Positions 52,493 to 64,000 of a DNA stretch of 64,000 nucleotides are shown piece by piece. The stretch covers positions 3,503-67,502 of the forward strand of contig CAZMTL010000001.1 in assembly GCA_964569575.1 (NCBI GenBank), written 5' to 3'. Below the pieces are notes generated by a model that saw only the letters and a list, made by a program, of their open reading frames with translations, searched no databases and was not told the DNA's origin. The position numbers were made by a program, and so were the translations under genes. The DNA is from an uncultured Gammaproteobacteria bacterium (GTDB lineage: Bacteria; Patescibacteriota; Patescibacteriia; UBA9934). Positions within the stretch are counted from its first letter, which is position 1, and every line of letters begins with the position of its first letter.

Positions 52493-54640
52493 CTACGTCA
52501 CTCCTTTGATCACTCTTCCCGGTCCAGAGTTTCGCTTCGCTCTCGAAAGGCCTTTTGGCGCTTCGTCGGCTGCTTTTTCGCGTTTACTGTCTTCTTTTGT
52601 GCGCCATCCCTTCGCACCTTGCGCTTCCATGTAGCCATGAATGTACCCAAGTACCCTTTCGCTCTTCGCTAAATCGGACTCTAGCTTGAGCAACTTCTTG
52701 CTTGCCTCTTTGTATCCCGGCGTTTTCATGACTCGGTTCCAGTAACCCTGTAAACCGCCACCACCCTTCAGTGAAGGATACTGTTTATAGAGAGCTTCCA
52801 AATCTTCTTCCAACATTTCCAGCTGAATTTTCTCGGCCTGATATTCTTCGTAGCTATATCCTGTTACCTTTTCGGCACCCAGCTTGTCGTAAAATTCAGG
52901 ACCTTCGATTTCTAAATTCTGCATCGCTTGTTCCGACAATTTTGCTTCTCCAAACCATTCGTCGGTTAAATCATCCGTTTCATCAAGTACATCTGCACTA
53001 GAACCATCTCCATCGCCAGAGTCGCGGTTACTTGCTTCGTTTTTTGATGGCTTGATTGCATTTGTCTCACTCAACTTTTGAAGCACCTCTTCGTTCGAAC
53101 GATTGTCGCTCGGCATGTTTGCCTCTGGAGTTTTTACGGAGGCGAATTCTTGCTTTAGAACTGAGTCGGGATCCGTGATCGGCATCGGATCAGAACCAGT
53201 GGCATATGAAGCGCTCAAATCTTCAAAATCCGCTTTAACTTCTTTTAATAACCTACTTCGCAGCTCTGGTGTTAGTTTCATTGCATAACGCTTGTCCGGA
53301 TCCAGAAGCTTTGGCTCCCCACTTTCGAAAACTAATTCGCCCTTACCATCACGTTCGTAATAATTTATATACTCGCTACCCTCACTCAATGCCTGAAGTT
53401 TTTTATTGTATCCGCTTATTTCACTCATCATCAACGACTCCATCTGGCCAGGAGTTTTCTTTTCTTGAGACTTCTTTCTGTCTTTAATATTCTTATAATT
53501 CTCTGCCGTGAAAGTCTTCGTATATACTTCATCTTTTCTAAACGGATCGTTTTTCGCCTTATATTCTTGTTCGCTAAAACTTGACGAAACAATACCTGTT
53601 TCTGTCTTTAAATGATCTACAAACTCTCGTCGCTTCGCTTCAATCTTCTGCGCCGAATCATCGTCGCCGCGCTGCTTAAAGTTGTCGCGCGCGCGTCCCA
53701 AGTCCATTATGACTGCCTGATATTTTGGCAACTTATAACTTTCTTTAATCGATTTGATTTCGTTGTTAAAATTTCTGTGTGCCGTTTTTAAATTTTCGTC
53801 ATCGATCCCTTGCTCTAATTTCTTATTATACTGAACTCGAACGCCTTCACGTTTTTCTTCAAGCATCTCTAGCTGGTCTTCGATGCGATCAATCTCTTCT
53901 TTGGAATCCAATTTGTAATCCTCAGGCTTAAGTTTTTCTAAATCTTCCAATAACTGCCTATCTCCTTCCAGAGCTAGATCACCTTCAGTAATCTCTGCAG
54001 ACCTGTTCACCTGATTATTTGAGACTAATTCCAAATCACTTTTTGGCAGAAGTGTCGTGTCTGCCTCTTCTTCTCGATTTGACGCTGTATTCATCGGTTC
54101 GGTGACATCTGTTTCGGCTAATCTATTTTCTAGGTTCATCGGCTCAGTCTGCTCGTCAGCAATCTTGTTCGCAGCATTTTCATCTGCAATTGATAATCCA
54201 GAAGACTCTAAATCATCAAAAATACCTTCCTCTTTTTGAAAGGCGTCCAGCTTATTCAACCCATCCACATCTACATCCGGTTCAATTATTTCCGAAATGT
54301 GCCCAACGTCATCCATTGCAAGAACATCTTTTTCGATAATTTTCTCTGACTGGATGTCCAACGCTTTTAGTTCTGCTCGTATCTTGTCTAGCGCCTCGGC
54401 ATCGGTACCGGATTCGAAGGTGCGCTGAAGGAGATCGGCGAATTGGTTTAGGATTTCGTTTTTGCCTTCGTACTTTCGGGAAATATCAACGATGTTGGTC
54501 GCCAAAATACTCTCCGCTTCTGTCATTTCGTCTGCCGGTCGCTTTTCTCCAACACCTACATCCGGCGTAAGTGGCTTTCTTGGAGCTCGGTCTTGTTTCG
54601 AGATTTGGGTTGGTTCTTGATTTGGGCTGTCCATGTTCAT
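52493..54640 (-). CDS. Large (715 aa) highly acidic coiled-coil protein, hypothetical
   Basis: Long open frame rich in E/D/K with heptad-like segments. No enzymatic motif found. Confidence 0.5.
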   Translation of the reverse strand: MNMDSPNQEPTQISKQDRAPRKPLTPDVGVGEKRPADEMTEAESILATNIVDISRKYEGKNEILNQFADLLQRTFESGTDAEALDKIRAELKALDIQSEKIIEKDVLAMDDVGHISEIIEPDVDVDGLNKLDAFQKEEGIFDDLESSGLSIADENAANKIADEQTEPMNLENRLAETDVTEPMNTASNREEEADTTLLPKSDLELVSNNQVNRSAEITEGDLALEGDRQLLEDLEKLKPEDYKLDSKEEIDRIEDQLEMLEEKREGVRVQYNKKLEQGIDDENLKTAHRNFNNEIKSIKESYKLPKYQAVIMDLGRARDNFKQRGDDDSAQKIEAKRREFVDHLKTETGIVSSSFSEQEYKAKNDPFRKDEVYTKTFTAENYKNIKDRKKSQEKKTPGQMESLMMSEISGYNKKLQALSEGSEYINYYERDGKGELVFESGEPKLLDPDKRYAMKLTPELRSRLLKEVKADFEDLSASYATGSDPMPITDPDSVLKQEFASVKTPEANMPSDNRSNEEVLQKLSETNAIKPSKNEASNRDSGDGDGSSADVLDETDDLTDEWFGEAKLSEQAMQNLEIEGPEFYDKLGAEKVTGYSYEEYQAEKIQLEMLEEDLEALYKQYPSLKGGGGLQGYWNRVMKTPGYKEASKKLLKLESDLAKSERVLGYIHGYMEAQGAKGWRTKEDSKREKAADEAPKGLSRAKRNSGPGRVIKGVT

Positions 54641-54678: not shown

Positions 54679-56352
54679 CTAGAAACCGAAGGATTTCTTT
54701 TGGGATTTGGCGGCGGATGTCCACACCATCTTTTTGTCTTTGCGGCGTTTGAGGAGTTCTGCGAAATGCTCTCCGCCTAAAATGGTTGGAACGATGACGA
54801 AATGAGCTCCAAGTTCGTACATCTCTTTTGCGCGATCGGCGGATTTTACCGTTACGATGATGGTGGCTTTTGTGCGCTTTACTCCCTTGAGGAATTCGAT
54901 GATGTCGGCGCTGACTGCGTCGTCGGGGATGGTGGAGATGATGATTTTTGCTTTGTGCGCTTGGACGGCTTGGAGTAGATCTTGGTTCCCCGCGTCTCCG
55001 TACATGTGCGGAATGCGTTTTTGTTTGAGTTGTTCAATGGCTTTCGGATCGATGTCGACGACTAGATAGTCTTTTTTGAGGGATTTTACGGCCGGCAAAA
55101 TGCGCTCGCCTAGGCGGTGGTAGCCAAACATAATTACTTCTGGTGCATGCTCCACTTTTGTGCGTTTCTCCTTCCCTGCTAGTTCTAGTGGATAGAACAA
55201 AAATTCCATCTTGTCGTAAATGGCTTCGTTGTAGTTGATCATGTACGTCGAAATTGCGATCGTAATGAGGGCGACGATGGTGGTGAGTGGAAGAATGGAC
55301 GAGTCGACAAATCCTGCGGTGACACCGGCGGCGAGGAAGATGAATGAGAATTCCGAAATTTGCGCCATGGTGACGCCGACCAAAAATCCGGTTCGGGGGT
55401 GATAGCCGAATGCGCGTAGGATGATGAGGAGGATGATTGGGTTCCCGATTAGAATGAATGCGCTAAAGGCGATTCCCATTGGGAGAGATGCGGCAACGGA
55501 AGAAAGACTAAGGGTTGTACCGAGGTAGATGAAGAAGAGAATCAGGAAGAAGTCCCGCAGAGGGCGGACTTTGGCTTCGACTTCGCGGTGGAAGGCTAGG
55601 CCGGCGAGTGAAATTCCGGCTAGAAGCGCCCCGATTTCTATTCCGAATCCTAGGAAATGCAATCCGCTTGCAACCGCAAAACACCACGACAGCGATGTCA
55701 TGAACAGGAGTTCGTGCGAAGACGCCACAAACGCAAACAATTTTGGCAGAACATATTTCGCTAGCAGCCAAAGGATGAATACCACGGCGATTAATTTTGC
55801 GGCAGACATTAGCAGTACTACTTCGAGAGCTCCTTCTTGTGCGCGCAAAGAACCCACGACTAGTAGCAACATCATTGCGACTAGGTCTTGCACGATCAAC
55901 ACACCAATACTTACTCGCCCGTAAAAACGCTCGATGTCTTCTTTGTCACTCAACAGCTTTACAATAATGATCGTGCTCGAAAACGCGAATGCGGTGGCGA
56001 TGAATAAGCTAGTCATCAGATCGAAACCGAACGCTTGGCCGACAAAAATTCCGATTCCTGTTGTAAATATAATTTGGCCGAGCCCTGCGAAGAACGCGAT
56101 CATTCCAACATCCTTAACGCTGCGCCAGTTTAGATTTAATCCCACTAAAAATAATAAGAACGCAATACCGATTTCGGCAAGCGCCTTGAAGACTTCGGCT
56201 GATTCGGTAAGTCCAAGCACGCCCGGACCAACAATCAAGCCAGTAATAATGTAGGCAATGATGAGCGGTTGACGGAACAAGCGCGCCACAAGGGAAAGAA
56301 CTCCTGCCGTCAAAATAACGGCCCCGATTTCGATAAAGAGCGTGTCGATCAT
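54679..56352 (-). CDS. Monovalent cation:proton antiporter (CPA2/Kef-type) with C-terminal RCK/TrkA-N domain
   Basis: 557 aa. About 12 TM helices, then a Rossmann GxGxxG-like segment (IMFGYHRLGERI) and RCK features. Confidence 0.8.
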   Translation of the reverse strand: MIDTLFIEIGAVILTAGVLSLVARLFRQPLIIAYIITGLIVGPGVLGLTESAEVFKALAEIGIAFLLFLVGLNLNWRSVKDVGMIAFFAGLGQIIFTTGIGIFVGQAFGFDLMTSLFIATAFAFSSTIIIVKLLSDKEDIERFYGRVSIGVLIVQDLVAMMLLLVVGSLRAQEGALEVVLLMSAAKLIAVVFILWLLAKYVLPKLFAFVASSHELLFMTSLSWCFAVASGLHFLGFGIEIGALLAGISLAGLAFHREVEAKVRPLRDFFLILFFIYLGTTLSLSSVAASLPMGIAFSAFILIGNPIILLIILRAFGYHPRTGFLVGVTMAQISEFSFIFLAAGVTAGFVDSSILPLTTIVALITIAISTYMINYNEAIYDKMEFLFYPLELAGKEKRTKVEHAPEVIMFGYHRLGERILPAVKSLKKDYLVVDIDPKAIEQLKQKRIPHMYGDAGNQDLLQAVQAHKAKIIISTIPDDAVSADIIEFLKGVKRTKATIIVTVKSADRAKEMYELGAHFVIVPTILGGEHFAELLKRRKDKKMVWTSAAKSQKKSFGF

Positions 56353-56689: not shown

Positions 56690-57240
56690 TTAATTGTTGT
56701 AAGTATAACACAATTGATTTTTGTAATGCGATGCTCGCCGTCGCGTGTTGTACTTGGATGGTCGTTGGTTGTATTGATGAAGAAAAGTGGATCGCTGTTT
56801 TTCGAGAAGACCCCTCCTAGCCTCCCATTGGTAAGGGGAGGAAGCGCTGCAGGCTCGTGTCCCCCTTACCAAGGGGGACGACAGGGGGTCGCGTGACGCA
56901 TTCGCGTTCGATTATCGCGGAACCTCCCCTCCGTCCTTCGCTAAAGCTTCGGAGGACCCACCCGTAGCCTTGGCGAAGGAGGGGAAGCGCGTTTTGATCT
57001 TCGCCGAGAGATCTCTCCACTTCGCTCGGCTTCGCCTCACTTCGGTCGAGATGGTGATGTTTTAATTATGTTCCTACTACTTAGAGCATCTTTTTTTCTT
57101 ACCATCTCGACCGAACGAAGTGAGCGGAGAGATCTCTCGTGTGCGCTCGAAGCGAAATAAGCGATGGATCCCGGGTCGGGGCCCGGGATGACGGAGATGA
57201 TAGAGGCGCGTCGTGAGTAGGGATTGTTAGATCATTCGAG
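56690..57240. repeat. 550-bp cluster of nested palindromic repeats (families A, D and B plus a large inverted repeat 57030..57135)
   Basis: The family A copy at 56809..56893 is inverted relative to 48188..48270. Family D cgccgagagatctctc occurs twice, 56995-57025 and 57116-57140. Family B is at 57166..57192. Confidence 0.7.
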
Positions 57241-57293
57241 TCACTATATATCAAAACAAAAGACCCGCTCCTGAGAGCGGGTCGTGGGTTGCG

Positions 57294-57902
57294 TTACAGG
57301 GGTACGCATGGGTGCCTCGGTGAGAAGAAGATCATGCCCGTTCGGCGTGTAATCTTCCCTTCTGGTGGGCCGAAGGACTGACCTGGGTACAGGTAGGCTA
57401 CCTGTACAAGCCAACCTTCGTTCGAAAAACTGACGCGATAACCGATCGTGACCGTGCTGGTCGGATTGACCGGCTCCTTCACTTCGTCCGTTCGAAACAT
57501 GAGTGCTTGCGCGCTCCAGAACGGATTCGATTCCATCAACTCCCGATTCTTGAAGACGCCTTCCCGCAGGTACGTCGCGAGATCGAACGGCACCGTTCCG
57601 TGTCGAGGTACCGCCATCGGCCACCCCACCGGATGATCAAATGCCATCTCGATCTCTGCCCTTGCCGCGTGACGCTTCGCGTTGTCAGCGAGCGTTGCGT
57701 CGATCACCTTCTGCACGTGTCGCAGCAACTTGCCGAGCACGGCTTCGGACTCGAGCATTCCCATTACCGAACGCCACTTGGTGATTCGTCCCGGTCCCGG
57801 CCCTTCCATGCTGAACACGGCATTGGCCAGCCATCGACGAAGTTCTTCGCCGACAGCGATTACCACCGGAGCACCGTCCGGCAAACGCGTGATGACGGGC
57901 AT
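57294..57902 (-). CDS. Hypothetical 202-aa protein, second gene of a GC-rich two-gene operon
   Basis: ATG preceded by GGAGG 5 nt upstream, 19 nt after the stop of 57922..58215. A terminator hairpin gacccgctcctgagagcgggtc lies at about 57250..57275. High GC3. Confidence 0.45.
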   Translation of the reverse strand: MPVITRLPDGAPVVIAVGEELRRWLANAVFSMEGPGPGRITKWRSVMGMLESEAVLGKLLRHVQKVIDATLADNAKRHAARAEIEMAFDHPVGWPMAVPRHGTVPFDLATYLREGVFKNRELMESNPFWSAQALMFRTDEVKEPVNPTSTVTIGYRVSFSNEGWLVQVAYLYPGQSFGPPEGKITRRTGMIFFSPRHPCVPL

Positions 57903-57921
57903 GCCGCCTCCATTGCACTTG

Positions 57922-58215
57922 CTAGTGCTCGGTGTAGAGTTCTACTTCCCTACGGTCACTTGGAAAATCCCAGGCGCCGGTGTCGCAGAAGATGTGTACG
58001 CTGTAGCTCTGTGCTTCGGTGAAGACCTTCACCATCTCGAAGAGCACGCTGTACACCTCCAGAACTCGCAACAAGTCAGCCTTCGAGACCTGCACCTCGA
58101 GCACAAATATTCCTACCTTCACCGCCCACTTCACACTCAGACTCTCCGGCTCGTTGATCAGACAGCTGAGCATCTCATGAACCGATGCGATTTGTTCTGG
58201 CCGTGGTGCATTCAT
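57922..58215 (-). CDS. Hypothetical 97-aa protein, first gene of a GC-rich two-gene operon
   Basis: ATG preceded by AAAGGAGAAGCA and a TTGACA-17-TAGAAA promoter (minus strand, about 58230..58260). Confidence 0.4.
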   Translation of the reverse strand: MNAPRPEQIASVHEMLSCLINEPESLSVKWAVKVGIFVLEVQVSKADLLRVLEVYSVLFEMVKVFTEAQSYSVHIFCDTGAWDFPSDRREVELYTEH

Positions 58216-58298
58216 TGCTTCTCCTTTGACGACCGCTATTTCTACCAGTTCACACGGTTTTTGTCAATCAAAAATCCACCGGTAAGGGTGGATTTTTG

Positions 58299-59273
58299 CT
58301 ACTTATCAATACACGTACCTAGTAGCTCCGCAGATGGATATTGCTTTATGTGCCATTCACTTTCCGAAATTCGATCGCCCATGAATAGCAACTGATAGAT
58401 GTTTCCTGCCCGCAGTTCTTCAATCGTCGTCTGAACCTTGTCTTTATTTTCAAAACGGCATGTTCCTTCGTCTTTTTCGTAACTTCTATCATTTACGAAA
58501 TAATGCAGAAGGTACGCATCACCGTCTTTCTCGGTCGAGATATCTATGACTTGCTGGTAGCCGCTAGTTACTGAATTATCTATCTTTCCAGAAATCATTT
58601 GATCAACTTCTACAGCGCTATAAAAGCACTCCGTGTCCTGTTCGCAGTTCATCAACGTTTCGCTTACAGGTATTGATCCCAAATTCGTATTTGTGATCCC
58701 TAATCCCTTTGCACGCATTAGTTCGTACGCGTCCTGAGCGCGACCCAAGTAATAGCGACGATTGTCTTCGGGATTTACCCACCAAGCTTCTCCGCGGCTT
58801 TCGACTTGAAGGAAAATTTTTCCAGATTGCTGACGAGCGAATGAATGGTCGAATTTTGATCGCTGTGCTTGAACGAGTGGATTGTAGTCGTTTTGAACTT
58901 CGACGCCGTCGTTGTAACCATCGTTATCGCTATCTGAATCATTTGGATTTGTTCCGATCGCCTGTTCCATCGCGTCAGTTAAGCCATCATTGTCCGCATC
59001 CCAGTTACTTAATTTATAGTAGCCGATTGGGATCCGTTCTAAATTTGCATTTGTGATTCCGACTCCTTGTCCGCGCATAATTTGATACGCGCTGTCTGCT
59101 CGGTAAAGAAAGTGACGTTCTTTTGTTTCGGGATTTACGTACCAAGCTTCACCGTTCTGCTCGACCTGAAGCAAGATCTTTCCCGCAACGTTGTCGCGCA
59201 CCGAAGCGGCTTGCGCATTAGCAAACGGCACGAGTGCGGAGGCAATTAATAAAACGGCGGCTACTTTTTTCAT
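58299..59273 (-). CDS. Secreted repeat protein, paralog of 252..1286 (two GKILLQVE..GEAW(Y/W)VNP...YYL domains separated by TSP3-like DxDxDG repeats, plus a Cys-containing C-terminal domain)
   Basis: Signal peptide MKKVAAVLLIASALVPFANAQA. The same domain order as the left-edge gene. Confidence 0.65.
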   Translation of the reverse strand: MKKVAAVLLIASALVPFANAQAASVRDNVAGKILLQVEQNGEAWYVNPETKERHFLYRADSAYQIMRGQGVGITNANLERIPIGYYKLSNWDADNDGLTDAMEQAIGTNPNDSDSDNDGYNDGVEVQNDYNPLVQAQRSKFDHSFARQQSGKIFLQVESRGEAWWVNPEDNRRYYLGRAQDAYELMRAKGLGITNTNLGSIPVSETLMNCEQDTECFYSAVEVDQMISGKIDNSVTSGYQQVIDISTEKDGDAYLLHYFVNDRSYEKDEGTCRFENKDKVQTTIEELRAGNIYQLLFMGDRISESEWHIKQYPSAELLGTCIDK

Positions 59274-59401
59274 AGAAAACTATTTTTTATATTCTATCAC
59301 GATCACCTCAATCGATCATACGCTCGACTTCGAGTATCTGGATAACTTTTTAAACAAAGAACGCCCCGAGCCGAGAGCAGGACGCTCTTCGGCTGTGGGC
59401 G

Positions 59402-59966
59402 CTAGGGTTCGGACGCTTCGTTCAGCTTCAGCCCGAACTGGTGCAGGAAGTAGAAGACTTCGTCACACTCTGCCTTCGGCATGTTGCGGGAGGTGAGGTC
59501 CCACTCGCGCGCGTTGAGCAGATCGGCCATCGTGCTGATGCCGAACTCGATCAGTCGTGCGTGCGCGGATGTGCTCAACGTGCAGCGCGGGCGCAGGCTG
59601 GAGTCCCGCAGAACTTCCAGGATGGTCTTGGTTCGCAGGTCGGCGATGCGCGAGGCGCTTGGCACTCCGCTCTTCCATCCCATGATCTGCATCACTGGGC
59701 ACAGCTCGGTGACCGCCTTCAGCACTTCGGGCGTGTTCGGCAGGTAGAAGATGTGCTCGACGCGCTGCGTTCGTCCTTGTGGCGTGTGGACCATGATCAC
59801 GTCCGCGAACCGTGACGGATCGTCGTCGCGAATGCGTCCCTCGATGATGGCATGCCGCTCCTGTCGGTAGGCCAGGTCGGCAACAAGACGGTACGCAGCA
59901 GACTGTTCATCCACTTGATCGGTGTGGCAACCGTGGTATCCATCGACGTAAAACGTCCACTTGATC
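59402..59966 (-). CDS. Hypothetical protein encoded by a GC-rich cassette, with a C-terminal RNA-polymerase-alpha-CTD-like HhH domain
   Basis: ORF 59402..60127 trimmed to ATG 59966 (MIKWTFYVDGY), which has AGGAGG upstream and a TTGACC-17-TAGAGT promoter. C-terminal LSTSAHARLIEFGISTMADLLNAREWDLTSRNMPKAECDEVFYFLHQFGLKL. Confidence 0.45.
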
Positions 59967-60129
59967 ATGTCGTCCTCCTGTCGCAAGCGACAATTGACTC
60001 TAGCGAATTTACTCAAGCCGGTCAAACGAAAGAGCATTCTAATTGTAATCGCATTCAGCTTTTTCGCCTGTATTTTCCCGTTGACACTCCCCTCTTTTTC
60101 CCCTATTCTATCGACACAATTCGCCACAC

Positions 60130-60204
60130 GGTCCCATCGTCTAACGGTTAGGACGCCAGGTTCTCATCCTGGTAATCGGGGTTCGATTCCCCGTGGGATC
60201 ACCA
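60130..60204 (+). tRNA. tRNA-Glu (anticodon CUC)
   Basis: Cloverleaf read by hand. Acceptor GGTCCCA/TGGGATC, D-arm GTC..GAC, anticodon stem CCAGG/CCTGG with loop TTCTCAT, T-arm CGGGG-TTCGATT-CCCCG, discriminator A, encoded CCA. A terminator-like hairpin lies at 60209..60234. Confidence 0.85.
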
Positions 60205-60341
60205 GAAAAAGTCCGAGCTTACCTCGGGTTTTTTCATTGCATAAAACGCTACGAATAAGGATATGACCTCTTTACAAAATCTTGTACACACCTTTAATTT
60301 ATCACTAAAGGTAGGTCATCGATTAAATCAATAAAATATAA

Positions 60342-60926
60342 CTAAATAACATGAAGAGTTCCGATAACACCGTTCCGTATTCTGGACTGTAGTAACTTCT
60401 TCACAAGCAGACTCCAATCATCCCCATGATCAGGAAATTTAACAGTAACACATCCCTGGCTTATTGTTCCGAAATGTATATATCTCTGCGTACGAGCACC
60501 GTTCTCTTTTAATAACGGGAACCACACATTAGCCGCCTTGCTACCACCAGCCTTTTCATCTAAGTAGTTTTCTTTTATTAAGTCATTAACAGGATGTTCC
60601 GGCAAAAGCACATAATACGTCCCTGATTTAATACGTCGTGACGAACATACGACATTAATTGCCCCAAAACCATCGATAAGTAATTGATTATTATTTTGCA
60701 TGTATTTGATATCCACTCCGTCAGAATAATCAAATAAACCAAACTCTAATGATTCTGTAATATTTAATCTTTGTCCACTATAGCGACCCTCACTAATTAT
60801 ATATTCATTGTTTCGGTGAATTATTTTTGTATAATTCGGAATATAAAAATTGGTACCATCCGACAATTTTAATCTGCACCAATTAGAATCATTTACCCGT
60901 CTGAATACTCCTTCCTGAAGGCTCAT
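60342..60926 (-). CDS. Hypothetical protein with an L,D-transpeptidase/Tlde1-like His...Ser-x-Gly-Cys motif (YIHFGTISQGCVTV), encoded in an AT-rich islet
   Basis: 194 aa. About 33 % GC, against 42-47 % in neighbours. Motif resemblance only. Confidence 0.35.
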   Translation of the reverse strand: MSLQEGVFRRVNDSNWCRLKLSDGTNFYIPNYTKIIHRNNEYIISEGRYSGQRLNITESLEFGLFDYSDGVDIKYMQNNNQLLIDGFGAINVVCSSRRIKSGTYYVLLPEHPVNDLIKENYLDEKAGGSKAANVWFPLLKENGARTQRYIHFGTISQGCVTVKFPDHGDDWSLLVKKLLQSRIRNGVIGTLHVI

Positions 60927-61918
60927 ACCGAATCTTCAATGTAAGAATATGCTGATTGAACCAGTTGAATGAAATTTTCGTCAGAATTATATCGCTGAAT
61001 TAGCTCCATTCTCTCTGGCCAAGTCAAGAGCATAGAATCCATAAAATATTCTTCAACTGCCATGCGAATCGACTCTTTATCACTAATATATTTGGGAGAA
61101 TTGACCTGCATAACGCCATACGTACCCTGTTTGACGATAAACGATTTTAACCACTCTACCTTACGAAGCCAAGCTGGTCGCTGTAATGACTCAACTAAAC
61201 AGACTGCAAGTACGAGTTTTTTGTCAGCCCGATTAGCAATCGAAAATTCGTCAATATATTGTTTTATCCGGATACTTATTTTGTTTGACAATTTTTCGAA
61301 AATGTCTGATTCATCAACGTGATTCGCACGATACTGCCTGTATCCATAAACAGCTATTAGCGCAGCTAATGCTGCTGACCAGGTATTGTCAACTACATTG
61401 CTAAAGTCAGGCGCGATTGCTTGTCCGAAAGATGAAACTCCTAGAATCGCAGCCATTAAACCACCAAGAAGACAAATTAGGATTATGAAAAAATGGTAAA
61501 TGATTTGATTTGGCTTATTAAAATACGTCTTTACCCCGTCTTCTCCGAAAAATAATTTTTTTAAGGAAAGACCGTTTGTAGATATTGCGTGTACAAGCGC
61601 TGTCAATAATCCCAAATAAATAACGTCCCGTTGTGGTTTATCCTCTGCCACAACAGCCAAAATTGGCGTTAATATGATCATTATTGGGAGTAAACGAAAA
61701 CTAATAAATCGAAAAGGCGAGACCGATACATAGATACTAGTTTGATCCGATAGTGAAAAATAAAATGTAGGCCATTTTATTTTAACTAGTTCATACACAA
61801 GTCTGAGCAAGTAGCATGCCAGAGCACCAGCAAAGATATAATGCGCATAGTGATTAGCGGTCAGTCGATCAAGAAGTGAAAGCATGAATTGATAAGCTTG
61901 TAATACGAAATCTGGCAT
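60923..61918 (-). CDS. Membrane-anchored protein with a C-terminal lytic-transglycosylase-like (SLT family 1) motif
   Basis: 331 aa. About 5 TM helices, then LVESLQRP....GTYGVMQVNSPKY (E-S...G-hydrophobic-MQ-V pattern). Overlaps the downstream gene by 4 nt. Confidence 0.45.
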   Translation of the reverse strand: MPDFVLQAYQFMLSLLDRLTANHYAHYIFAGALACYLLRLVYELVKIKWPTFYFSLSDQTSIYVSVSPFRFISFRLLPIMIILTPILAVVAEDKPQRDVIYLGLLTALVHAISTNGLSLKKLFFGEDGVKTYFNKPNQIIYHFFIILICLLGGLMAAILGVSSFGQAIAPDFSNVVDNTWSAALAALIAVYGYRQYRANHVDESDIFEKLSNKISIRIKQYIDEFSIANRADKKLVLAVCLVESLQRPAWLRKVEWLKSFIVKQGTYGVMQVNSPKYISDKESIRMAVEEYFMDSMLLTWPERMELIQRYNSDENFIQLVQSAYSYIEDSV

Positions 61919-62101
61919 ACATATCTAGTCTATCATCTCTTTGCCCGAGTCTCTATATCTCTGCATTGGCATCGCGTCAGTGCTGTGCAAGAGCCAGCCC
62001 TGTTTGTTTACTTCAGTCATAAATCCCTTCCAACCAAATTCCAAACAAAGAACCGCCCCACAAGAGGCGCCGAGGGGCGGTTCGTGGTGGCGGTTGAGTT
62101 G

Positions 62102-62434
62102 TTACGTTTGGCCGTGCGTCTGTGTGGCCTTCAGGAAGAGTTCGCGGGTCTTTCCCACGAACGGCGCGTCTTGGAACGAGGCGTGCTTTGGCCACGGGAT
62201 TGCGATCAGGCCAATCAGCCAGCTGCGCTCGCTTTCGCTCGAGGTCGCGTAGCGCTCTTCGAGCTCGTGCGCGTACTGGCTTCGGAATTCAGGCCGCATG
62301 CGCGAATCCACAACGATCCAGAGCAGCACATGCATGTAGAATTGATAGTCTGAGTCGACCATCTCTTCGACCAACTCGGTGTAGTTGGGATGTTCGCCAA
62401 CAAATCGCTCATCAACGGAATAATCCAGCATCAC
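62102..62434 (-). CDS. Hypothetical 110-aa protein, GC-rich cassette
   Basis: ATG after AGGATAGGTG. Divergent from the 62615 gene, with a shared TTGACA-containing intergenic region. Terminator hairpin gaaccgcccc...ggggcggttc at 62049..62085. Confidence 0.4.
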   Translation of the reverse strand: MMLDYSVDERFVGEHPNYTELVEEMVDSDYQFYMHVLLWIVVDSRMRPEFRSQYAHELEERYATSSESERSWLIGLIAIPWPKHASFQDAPFVGKTRELFLKATQTHGQT

Positions 62435-62614
62435 CTATCCTTGCATGTTAGTCATTCAGCACGACGACTCACAATATCACGATTTAAGTATTTGTCAATT
62501 TAGCTCAGCTTAACTCCGCCCCCCCCCTGCGACATTGACAAAGCGCTCAAAAATGGCTATTATTCGCGCCGAATGGTGACGATTTTGTTGCCTTCTGAAC
62601 GCCCGAGGTTCTTC

Positions 62615-63079
62615 ATGATCGCTTCTCTTCTGCTGATGTTCGGCGCCAACGCCAACCCTGTGACGGACGCGCCCGTGAAGTGGGATCCAATCGTGGAGCC
62701 GGCCCCGACCGTCAAGCCGAACCCGCACGTCTCCCCTGCCACCAGTCGGCTGGAAGCGCCGCAGATCGAGCTGATGGCGGCGGCTGAGATGCGTTACGGT
62801 CGGAAGTACGACCTGGTGCTGGTGAACGTCGACGCGACCAATCCCGGGAAGGACGGCTGGCGGACCTGTGGTCGTATGACCATCGAGCAGTTCGGCATCC
62901 TGCCCGAGGTTCCGGCCGTCTTACTCAACAAGCAGAACGAGCCGTGCGGCGATCACCCCAATGATCCCCTCGCGCTCGTGATGGTGGTGGGACCGACCGG
63001 TTTCCACGAAGCCATCATGCTCCCGAGCAAAGGATCGGAATACACCAAAGTCGAGCTGGCGATCATTCAGCTCGACTAG
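62615..63079 (+). CDS. Hypothetical secreted 154-aa protein, GC-rich cassette
   Basis: ORF 62573..63079. Preferred start ATG 62615 (GAGG 8 nt upstream) gives signal-peptide MIASLLLMFGANANP. Promoter TTGACA-17-TATTAT at about 62537..62565. Confidence 0.45.
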   Translation: MIASLLLMFGANANPVTDAPVKWDPIVEPAPTVKPNPHVSPATSRLEAPQIELMAAAEMRYGRKYDLVLVNVDATNPGKDGWRTCGRMTIEQFGILPEVPAVLLNKQNEPCGDHPNDPLALVMVVGPTGFHEAIMLPSKGSEYTKVELAIIQLD

Positions 63080-63273
63080 CTCACACACCCACGACACAAG
63101 AGCCACTCAGCTTTTGCCTCGCCGGGTGTGTTCTTGTTTTTATTAAATAAGCTTGTTTTAAGGCTTTTGGCTTGATTTTTCTTTCAAACTGTGTTAGTCT
63201 GTGATGTTGGCTTTTTTGGTGGTTCGCTTGGTTTATTGATGGTAAATCGCGCGAAACACCGTAGGAGTCACTC

Positions 63274-63804
63274 ATGTTCTTCTTCATTTCTACCTTCGCC
63301 TTGGCCACCGAACCCGACCTCATCGAGGTCGAGAAGCACGATCCCGAACCGAACACCGCATATTTCTTGCGGGTGCTCGGGGGCGGGCACATGCAGCCCG
63401 ACTACGGACCGATCCGCAAGGGCGTCAGCCCTTCGATCAGCCTCGGAGCAGGAGTCGAGTTCCGCGAGCCTGGACTCGCCATGGTGCAGGTCGCTCTCGA
63501 CCTCACCTACTTCCCCATCACGAAGGGTTACGGAGGACGGCACACGGCCGTTCTCGGGTACCCCTGGCAGCACTTCTCCATTTACGGAGGGGTTGGCCAC
63601 CAGCTCGAGACGCATCTTGGGCCTCTGTGGCTCGATGCGTACTCGGCGCTCGCCGTCGTGGGCGCCGACGCGCGCGCGGGTGATCGACTGGCCGTCTCCA
63701 TCGAAGGATGGTGTTCGGCTGGTAGCGCCTCCAAGCGCGAAGAAGGGTCGTTCGTCGCGTCTTGCGGCGGGAATGTGGGACTGAAGGTCCTGCTTCCGAA
63801 GTAA
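63274..63804 (+). CDS. Hypothetical 176-aa protein, beta-rich and possibly outer-membrane-barrel-like, GC-rich cassette
   Basis: ATG after GTAGGAG. Promoter TTGATT-17-TAGTCT. Alternating hydrophobic beta-strand patterns. A GC-rich hairpin plus T-run lies at about 63806..63860. Confidence 0.4.
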   Translation: MFFFISTFALATEPDLIEVEKHDPEPNTAYFLRVLGGGHMQPDYGPIRKGVSPSISLGAGVEFREPGLAMVQVALDLTYFPITKGYGGRHTAVLGYPWQHFSIYGGVGHQLETHLGPLWLDAYSALAVVGADARAGDRLAVSIEGWCSAGSASKREEGSFVASCGGNVGLKVLLPK

Positions 63805-63899
63805 CGCGCACTCGCGCGGCAAAGAGCACTCGCTCTCGCCGCTCGGGTGCTTCTTTGTTTTTACTCTACATTCTTCGCAACATTTGCTACACTTTTTGC

Positions 63900-64000
63900 A
63901 TGACACAGGTGATCGCGACTATTTGGAAGAAACCGTACAATGCCGAAAAGAACCAAGCGATGATCGATGCTGGGGTGAATGTTTTTCGTATTAAGTGTTC
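63900..64000 (+). CDS. pyk: Pyruvate kinase, N-terminal fragment; the gene runs off the right edge
   Basis: ATG 63900. MTQVIATIWKKPYNAEKNQAMIDAGVNVFRIK resembles the PK N-terminus (KIVATIGP...L..AGMNVARLNFSHG). Confidence 0.4.
   Translation, partial: MTQVIATIWKKPYNAEKNQAMIDAGVNVFRIKC

Follow-up and report, generated by a model that had tools for sequence, protein, structure and literature searches.

A mobile two-gene cassette beside a tRNA-Glu gene pairs a membrane protein carrying a divergent SLT-type domain with a YkuD/Tlde1-fold protein and may serve in defence

What are two overlapping, AT-rich genes doing immediately downstream of a tRNA-Glu gene in contig CAZMTL010000001.1? The pair, here named gene A (60923-61918, minus strand, 331 aa) and gene B (60342-60926, minus strand, 194 aa), lies in a 64,000-nucleotide stretch of that contig, which we refer to as the window and whose numbering we use throughout. 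An earlier note on this DNA had proposed that the two genes form a horizontally acquired module for cell-wall remodelling or antibacterial attack. The stop codon of A and the start codon of B overlap by four nucleotides (ATGA), and A and B form a translationally coupled operon of foreign composition. To the left, the islet that carries them is bordered by the gene for tRNA-Glu(CUC) (60130-60204, plus strand; anticodon CTC by ARAGORN; Rfam RF00005, 61.7 bits). A bidirectional hairpin terminator follows at 60207-60236 (stem 60213-60227, with a T-run on each strand), and this hairpin, judged by its sequence, could stop transcription arriving from the tRNA gene as well as from the A-B operon. On the right stands the hairpin terminator (62045-62088, minus strand, stem 62054-62069) of the upstream GC-rich gene at 62102-62434. 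Because terminator hairpins flank both ends, the 1.8-kb AT-rich islet could be bounded to about 60237-62044.

The islet has a GC content of 0.372 (0.377 in gene A and 0.364 in gene B) against a window mean of 0.470, and is flanked immediately by DNA of 0.574 and 0.575. It is the GC minimum among windows of the same size (standard deviation 0.034), the next lowest elsewhere in the window being 0.400. The tRNA-adjacent islet described earlier is therefore real; the GC content of about 33% attributed to it holds for local 300-bp minima (0.32-0.33, at 60600-61050) and not for the islet as a whole. As had been reported, the tRNA 3' end is not duplicated anywhere in the window, even with up to 3 mismatches allowed, and the islet has no meaningful flanking repeats in the window. 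The list of open reading frames (ORFs) contains no integrase gene in the islet, and an Rfam scan of 56-64 kb returned nothing besides tRNA-Glu. Of the hallmarks of a tRNA island, the islet thus has the compositional anomaly and the adjacency to a tRNA gene, and it lacks the integrase and the attachment (att) repeat.

Other genomes carry the same pair. A metagenome scan with an alignment of A returned 50 loci, and profile searches of the ORFs placed B directly downstream of A, overlapping it or separated by at most 18 nt, in L001, L004, L007, L011, L014-L016, L018-L023 and L045. Two distant B members, P0057 and P0099 (L071-L074), lie behind upstream genes that match the A profile at 7e-85 and 2e-63, and the A-B cassette was found at 16 distinct loci besides the window. 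All-vs-all BLAST of the neighbours across loci revealed no conserved third gene; the two candidates for this role, a GIY-YIG gene (L001) and a 234-aa gene (L007), were locus-specific. The GC content of the cassette ranges from 0.21 to 0.36 and, in 12 of 14 loci, is lower than that of the flanking DNA (0.334 vs 0.558 in L001 and 0.353 vs 0.472 in L016, for example).

Several of these loci bear marks of mobility. A transposase adjoins the cassette in L004, a Bdellovibrionales metagenome-assembled genome (MAG), and in L072 (1646-6609) the cassette sits on a small integrative element that encodes a large serine recombinase and a REP_ORF2-G2P/RepSA-type replication protein and abuts tRNA-Gln. A tRNA-Leu gene lies ~200 bp from the cassette in L001 and a tRNA-Trp gene ~630 bp from it in L023; att repeats were not found in L001, L023 or L072. 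Scanning species-representative genomes returned only a Bdellovibrionales MAG, in which the cassette is located elsewhere than at tRNA-Glu. Two scans of the 2.9 million viral contigs of IMG/VR detected no relatives of A or B. These results demonstrate that A-B is a conserved cassette that is horizontally mobile among unrelated genomes, and the earlier suggestion of horizontal acquisition is upheld by both its foreign composition and its recurrence. Separately, we observed that the GIY-YIG gene of L001 (1373-1950) encodes a small protein (84-91 aa) and lies between tRNA-Leu and the cassette, and that a homologue in L020 (14063-14385) adjoins tRNA-Asn ~4.5 kb from the cassette there; this protein could be a homing-type nuclease that moves such islets.

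We then asked what the two proteins are. Window A matched nothing in Pfam, PHROGs or PADLOC (E<=1), and a phmmer search of PDB sequences was empty; a word-indexed search of 5.8 billion proteins yielded five A relatives at 28-40% identity. The AlphaFold 2 model of A (pLDDT 74.6) is helical in both parts, with a membrane region at the N-terminus and a confidently modelled domain at the C-terminus. Five transmembrane (TM) helices are predicted within residues 24-196 (61331-61849, minus strand), at 24-44, 73-92, 99-117, 139-162 and 178-196, and residues 205-331 (60926-61306, minus strand; pLDDT 80-95) make up the C-terminal domain. When we compared the C-terminal alignment of A with a reference alignment of five SLT (lytic transglycosylase) domains of E. 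coli K-12 (Slt70, EmtA, MltC, MltD and MltF), hhalign reported a probability of 83.7% (P 8e-6, score 38.0). Control comparisons with the reversed template and with 40 column-shuffled templates scored at most 16.3 with a probability below 1%, and controls including the unrelated B family scored at most 17.8 with a probability of at most 1.6%. Weaker signals point the same way. Pfam SLT is the family most often touched by A homologues (5 of 38, the best at E 0.011; one further match is to Lysozyme_like), and the A family profile marginally matches EtgA, a lytic transglycosylase of type III secretion, in the PDB (E 0.49). Foldseek placed the Atlantic cod g-type lysozyme first (probability 0.97, E 0.19), with Auto, MltF and salmon g-lysozyme further down among otherwise random membrane proteins, and the matches from a viral fold library, none better than E 0.2, were to peptidoglycan hydrolase, SLT and GEWL-like proteins.

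The earlier reading of A as a polytopic protein that ends in a lytic-transglycosylase-like region, recognised from the motifs ES and GVMQV, agrees with these comparisons. Both motifs are present: E243-S244 (61187-61192, minus strand), whose Glu aligns to the catalytic Glu of the 'ES' motif of Slt70 and MltC, and Y267-G-V-M-Q-V272 (61103-61120, minus strand), which aligns to the 'GLMQ' motif of SLT domains and whose Y, G and Q are invariant. Across 38 homologues, P170, E243, R247, P248, R252, E255, Y267, G268 and Q271 are invariant and M270, V272, D280, S283 and N311 nearly so, giving the family pattern E-[SN]-x-x-R-P...R..E...G-T-Y-G-[VI]-M-Q-V...D..S...Y-N. An insertion of ~10 residues, containing the invariant R-P...R...E, separates SLT motifs I and II. 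Compared with the family-1 lytic transglycosylases (PF01464; Slt70, MltC, EmtA and EtgA), A thus places E243 on the catalytic Glu and YG(V/I)MQ on GLMQ, and it has a conserved YN further along, as in AYNxG (Y310-N311, outside the columns aligned by hhalign); goose-type and other lysozyme-type folds also recur in fold searches with A, at E 0.19 or higher. Known lytic transglycosylases are periplasmic, whereas the domain of A is fused to a five-TM region and predicted to be cytoplasmic. By these alignments, A carries a divergent SLT-type domain in which the catalytic Glu is retained.

A match of window A to a SLATT pore domain (NCBIfam SLATT_1, NF033634; E 6.7e-4, 19.6 bits against a cutoff of 41) was treated as chance because window A alone matches and none of the 37 other homologues does. 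Distant homologues of A that lack B, many of them on high-GC, Actinobacteria-like contigs that include a Micromonospora genome, stand alone or carry a C-terminal extension of ~100 aa. We noted the extension in A-only homologues on high-GC contigs L037, L047, L048 and L055, and one protein in the A alignment matches a Gmad2 Ig-like domain (1.7e-8), possibly through its C-terminal extension. In these proteins the extension may be an alternative partner or a sensor module fused in cis.

Relatives of B were harder to reach. Window B had no match in Pfam (E<=1), NCBIfam, PHROGs or PADLOC, phmmer against PDB sequences was empty, and the word-indexed search of 5.8 billion proteins returned only B itself. 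Look-ups of the identical sequences retrieved no record for either A or B. On a metagenomic contig (L001/L002), an A relative is followed by an overlapping 210-aa gene whose product is 28% identical to B (E 7e-21), and this protein, used as a second seed, led to three more relatives. An exhaustive profile search with the resulting five-sequence alignment uncovered a family of 441 cluster representatives at E<=1e-3 and 236 at E<=1e-10, with clusters defined at 50% identity. W135, H151, G153, G158, C159 and W171 are invariant in 55 members; in 69 members W135, G153, G158 and C159 remain invariant, and H151 is found in at least 90%. The His/Ser-x-Gly-Cys arrangement pointed out earlier is indeed there, as H151-F-G-T-I-S156-Q-G-C159 (60450-60476, minus strand) within the longer motif Y-I-H151-F-G-T-I-S156-Q-G-C159-V-T-V.

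An AlphaFold model of B built on the five-sequence alignment (pLDDT 82, pTM 0.82) has an all-beta N-terminal domain (residues 1-95; 60642-60926, minus strand) and a catalytic-type C-terminal domain (residues 96-194; 60345-60641, minus strand) that is beta-rich with one long helix and contains the conserved G128-S129, W135 and W171. When the model was searched against the PDB with Foldseek, the top 50 matches were all L,D-transpeptidases (Ldts) or YkuD proteins (E down to 1e-4, probability ~1.0), among them LdtMt2, LdtMt1, LdtMt3, M. abscessus Ldt2, B. subtilis YkuD and E. faecium Ldt, and the N-terminal domain was aligned with the Ig-like domain of LdtMt2. Global TM-scores were just 0.35-0.41, values that would be compatible with a match of both domains, Ig-like and catalytic (the layout modelled here and that of the BC module of LdtMt2), set at another angle to each other. 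The Pfam family Tlde1_dom is matched by 9 of 69 B relatives (best 5e-6) and YkuD by one of 69 (0.0077), and window B matches neither. The link from B to Tlde1_dom is therefore transitive, since it runs through more distant relatives. Fold modelling thus supports the L,D-transpeptidase-like character first proposed for B and places it as a divergent protein within the YkuD/Tlde1 fold superfamily, one that also serves as a toxin-type module.

This last feature is evident from domain fusions. B domains lie C-terminal to eCIS_core/DUF4157 (P0112 and P0123), to HepT and a middle domain (P0111 and P0149) and to Peptidase_C70 (P0101); the B module occurs in tandem in P0055 and behind three repeats of the N-terminal beta-domain in P0066. 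Reuse as a C-terminal toxin module makes the B domain plausibly harmful to cells. A further subclass of ~320-aa proteins shares a common unannotated N-domain of ~130 aa ahead of B (23 of 150 listed, including P0068, P0074, P0075 and P0083).

Tlde1 proteins (PF10908, Tlde1_dom/DUF2778), which are L,D-carboxypeptidase/transpeptidase effectors of type VI secretion systems (T6SS) in Salmonella and others, belong to the same fold superfamily as B. The catalytic set of Tlde1a comprises H121, S128, H129 and C131, arranged as H121-x6-S128-H129-G-C131 (PMC9638812). B keeps the His...Ser-x-Gly-Cys-hydrophobic arrangement (H151, S156, G158, C159 and V160) and likewise has no signal peptide. It differs in the shorter spacing H-x4-S-Q-G-C, in Q157 at the place of the second His (S, K, Q or A across the family) and in its extra N-terminal Ig-like domain. 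Its context differs as well: no T6SS genes were seen among the named ORFs of the window or the neighbours at other loci, no Tldi-type periplasmic immunity gene accompanies B, and its partner is the upstream five-TM SLT-like protein. In its modelled two-domain layout B resembles the BC module of LdtMt2, and its His-to-Cys spacing is identical to the H+8 of IHGDCVSIGC in E. coli DpaA/YafK. YkuD-type Ldts (LdtMt2, YkuD, Ldt-fm and DpaA/YafK) are nonetheless periplasmic or extracytoplasmic, whereas B is predicted not to be exported by Sec.

On which side of the membrane would these domains be? Lysine and arginine residues average 9.6 in loop 1, loop 3 and the segment after TM5 of protein A, against 1.7 in the N-terminus, loop 2 and loop 4, and the asymmetry runs in the same direction in 38 of 38 homologues. 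This positive-inside analysis predicts that A is oriented N-out/C-in, with the SLT-like domain in the cytoplasm. B has neither a signal peptide nor a lipobox, and a hydrophobic N-terminus occurs in just 2 of 93 short members of its family. Both wall-enzyme domains are thus predicted to be cytoplasmic.

The genomic company of the cassette is informative. In L007-L010 it lies within a type I restriction-modification (R-M) operon that reads hsdM, 91 aa, hsdS, 234 aa, A, B, hsdR; DUF2726 and Bro-N genes stand ahead of this operon, and DUF5655, GmrSD and PD-(D/E)xK genes come after it. R-M genes abut the cassette in L011 (GmrSD-HNH, EcoRI methylase and DUF5655), L014 (an N6_N4 methylase fused to LexA/S24), L018 (a type IIG-like N6_Mtase/Eco57I/HSDR_N protein) and L021 (an Eco57I/TaqI_C type IIG enzyme). 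An SLFN_AlbA_2 gene comes after B in L004, and a DUF2726 gene follows B in L071-L073, lying convergent to B on the L072 element. Pooling 69 neighbour ORFs, the commonest Pfam families were N6_Mtase, HSDR_N, GmrSD_N, Eco57I, SNase, DUF5655 and HNH, and PADLOC matches were mad2, type I and II methyltransferases, PDC-S18 and REase_MTase_IIG. The A-only homologue L048 is also located after hsdM and hsdR genes. Defence neighbours were present in 7 of about 12 informative A-B loci, a small sample counted without a background comparison. Next to the cassette in the window are orphan genes with no PADLOC match, so that this context is uninformative. Taken together, the cassette is recurrently found beside known defence genes in unrelated genomes.

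Embedding of this kind has a precedent: the anticodon nuclease PrrC is a defence gene that lies between hsdS and hsdR of the type I R-M locus EcoprrI. The cassette in L007-L010 holds the same position (hsdS-(234 aa)-A-B-hsdR). The proteins are wholly different, however, the window cassette stands alone beside a tRNA gene, and the link to R-M seen here is one of position. The 234-aa gene between hsdS and A-B (L007 7279-7980, also in L008-L010) is itself unannotated, with faint PADLOC matches only (PD-Lambda-1 at 5.7e-4 and PDC-M09A at 2.8e-3), and may be another embedded defence gene.

Because the cassette is mobile and lies at R-M genes, and because both of its enzyme domains are predicted to be cytoplasmic, we favour an intracellular role in conflict or defence over one in secretion or wall remodelling. 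That A-B is a conflict or defence cassette, most likely acting in abortive infection, falls a little short of an even chance in our estimate. We further hypothesized, more tentatively and with some doubt, that A-B is a two-gene abortive-infection system in which a peptidoglycan-directed killing pair is released on infection, a host-encoded analogue of holin and endolysin that brings about altruistic lysis. In this model, whose topology, defence function, trigger, substrates and lysis-from-within mechanism we infer, the islet would be a self-contained, horizontally transferred operon that hops between unrelated genomes and lands in R-M and defence islands. A would be a five-TM inner-membrane protein with a glycosidase domain of the SLT/lysozyme type, and B a signal-less protein combining an Ig-like domain with a YkuD/Tlde1-type Cys-His domain. 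At rest, both enzyme domains would stay on the cytoplasmic face of the membrane, where they would have no access to peptidoglycan or could work on precursors only. Triggering of the membrane part of A, for instance by phage infection, would let the enzymes reach the wall, or the precursors lipid II and UDP-MurNAc-peptide. A would then attack glycan strands and B peptide stems, so that an infected cell would be killed or lysed before new phage could leave it.

Phage holin-endolysin lysis cassettes offer the nearest parallel, and RexAB is an abortive-infection system with a membrane effector. A-B would share with these a membrane protein and signal-less, wall-directed enzyme domains, which makes killing by envelope damage plausible. 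It differs from holin-endolysin cassettes in that it is encoded by the host or its islands, was not found in viral contigs and has its muralytic-type domain fused to the membrane protein.

Several observations weigh against this defence model. Guilt by association, by which Doron and colleagues (2018) reportedly picked out defence-island genes, is the one line of evidence that points to defence. Five of 12 A-B loci with usable flanks, the window included, have no recognisable defence neighbour, and neither A nor B matched any defence-system model of PADLOC-DB v2.0.0 at E<=1. No sensor or NTPase domain is evident in A or B. Many distant homologues of A lack B, so the pair is not obligatory for A. 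The topology is exposed at one point, as TM5 is weakly hydrophobic; were it not to cross the membrane, that would put the SLT-like domain in the periplasm and undo the sequestration model.

The enzyme assignments have exposed points too. The hhalign alignment between A and the SLT domains spans 51 columns and covers motifs I and II only, window A has no Pfam SLT match, and the family matches stay below the gathering score. The AlphaFold models of A and B were built on alignments of 5-6 sequences. For B, the family profile found no Ldt among PDB sequences (its matches were non-significant), hhalign against four E. coli YkuD domains (LdtB, LdtD, LdtE and DpaA) reported a probability of 1.6%, and the link to Ldts, as modelled, is structural and transitive. 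A literature search returned nothing relevant linking LD-transpeptidase, YkuD or DUF2778 to phage defence, or lytic transglycosylase to defence islands.

The best-surviving alternative, which we consider unlikely, is an interbacterial toxin-immunity pair in which B would be a Tlde1-like, peptidoglycan-editing effector delivered to competitors by a T6SS, an extracellular contractile injection system (eCIS) or another route, and A would be its membrane-anchored immunity or accessory protein. B is in the right superfamily, T6SS effectors likewise lack signal peptides, B-type domains occur C-terminal to eCIS_core/DUF4157 and other toxin-type N-termini, and tight two-gene linkage is typical of effector-immunity pairs. 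Yet the 21 large named ORFs of the window include no recognised T6SS or eCIS gene, nor do the listed families of the 69 neighbours elsewhere, no Tldi-like immunity gene is present, and window B has neither a Tlde1_dom match nor the second His of the Tlde1 motif. The place of A is awkward for an immunity protein as well, since A lies upstream and carries an SLT-like domain with an invariant catalytic-type Glu. It also occurs without B, including on the high-GC Actinobacteria-like contigs, and the cassette can be embedded in an hsd operon. The antibacterial effector proposed in the earlier note is therefore not our preferred account.

A toxin-antitoxin or addiction module that stabilises mobile islands and R-M loci, with B as an intracellular toxin (cleaving precursors, for example) and A as its restraint, strikes us as improbable. 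The operon is translationally coupled with the putative antidote gene first, the cassette resides on integrative elements and in R-M islands, and B domains turn up elsewhere as toxin modules, two relatives having them fused to the HepT toxin. A, however, is large, polytopic and enzyme-like, unlike a small labile antitoxin; it has no DNA-binding autoregulatory domain and is found alone in many genomes. This explanation also overlaps with the defence model, many toxin-antitoxin systems being abortive-infection systems.

Less probable again is a wall-remodelling module of mobile elements, in which A would be a transglycosylase like VirB1, P19 or EtgA and B an Ldt, together opening and repairing the wall for transfer or secretion, or serving it as housekeeping enzymes. 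The weak EtgA match of the SLT-like domain, the presence of the cassette on small integrative elements and the peptidoglycan activity of both enzyme types in known systems are consistent with such a role. Against it, no conjugation or secretion genes accompany the cassette in the loci examined, B has no export signal, and the enzyme domain of A is predicted to be cytoplasmic. A housekeeping function also fits poorly with the patchy distribution, foreign composition and R-M embedding of the pair. The remodelling role raised in the earlier note thus gives way, in view of the R-M neighbourhoods and the predicted cytoplasmic domains, to an intracellular one in conflict or defence.

Finally, a decayed prophage lysis cassette left at the tRNA gene, with a holin-like protein and an endolysin-type enzyme, would suit the AT-rich, tRNA-adjacent location, the combination of a membrane protein and muralytic-type enzymes that lack signal peptides, as in holin-endolysin systems, and the weak matches to peptidoglycan hydrolase, SLT and GEWL-like viral folds, but it is highly improbable given the lack of A or B relatives in IMG/VR, of a PHROG match and of flanking phage genes in the window or the 16 other loci, and given that the pair is kept intact across very different genomes, which argues that it is under selection in cells.

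Around the tRNA gene, from 56700 to 64000, the window is a compositional mosaic in which GC-rich (0.57-0.66) orphan ORFs alternate with AT-rich stretches. The orphans, at 57294-57902, 59402-60127, 62102-62434, 62573-63079 and 63274-63804, have no Pfam, NCBIfam or PADLOC match. This pattern suggests a hypervariable region with several independent acquisitions beyond the 1.8-kb islet. One of these ORFs (59402-60127, minus strand) is listed as 241 aa with a GTG start at 60127, 2 nt from the tRNA; its true start is probably an internal Met (MIKWTF...), and its C-terminus faintly matches the RpoA C-terminal (HhH) region (E 0.072). At 58299-59273 (minus strand) is a gene for a secreted 324-aa protein with bacterial TSP3 (thrombospondin type 3) repeats, in which a module of ~70 aa that matches no family (GKI[LF]LQVE..GEAW[YW]VNPE..R.YL.RA.DAY..MR..G.GITN.NL) is duplicated internally. 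Further away, a 715-aa ORF (52493-54640, minus strand) with no Pfam or PADLOC match has the hrcA-grpE-dnaK region on one side and a Na+/H+ exchanger-TrkA_N gene (54679-56352) on the other. The named ORFs of the window are housekeeping genes: hrcA-grpE-dnaK, dnaJ, class II ribonucleotide reductase, PBP2, Mur ligase, ABC-F, RecQ and GlmS.

Both fold superfamilies found here were already known. What is new is two sequence families outside Pfam, NCBIfam, PHROGs and PADLOC, their fixed pairing and architecture, and their location in defence islands. The B family alone comprises at least 441 clusters at 50% identity without coverage in curated libraries, and the cassette is typically wedged in R-M loci. 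The hypothesis is addressable with a 1.6-kb operon and three key residues, E243 of A and H151 and C159 of B. If A-B is a toxin-immunity pair, it would represent a new clade of Tlde1-related toxins whose membrane partner is unusual and resembles an enzyme. As a defence system, A-B would embody a new effector logic, in which wall-directed enzymes act from within the cell, and the L,D-transpeptidase fold would gain a cytoplasmic role in conflict beyond wall cross-linking and T6SS toxins.

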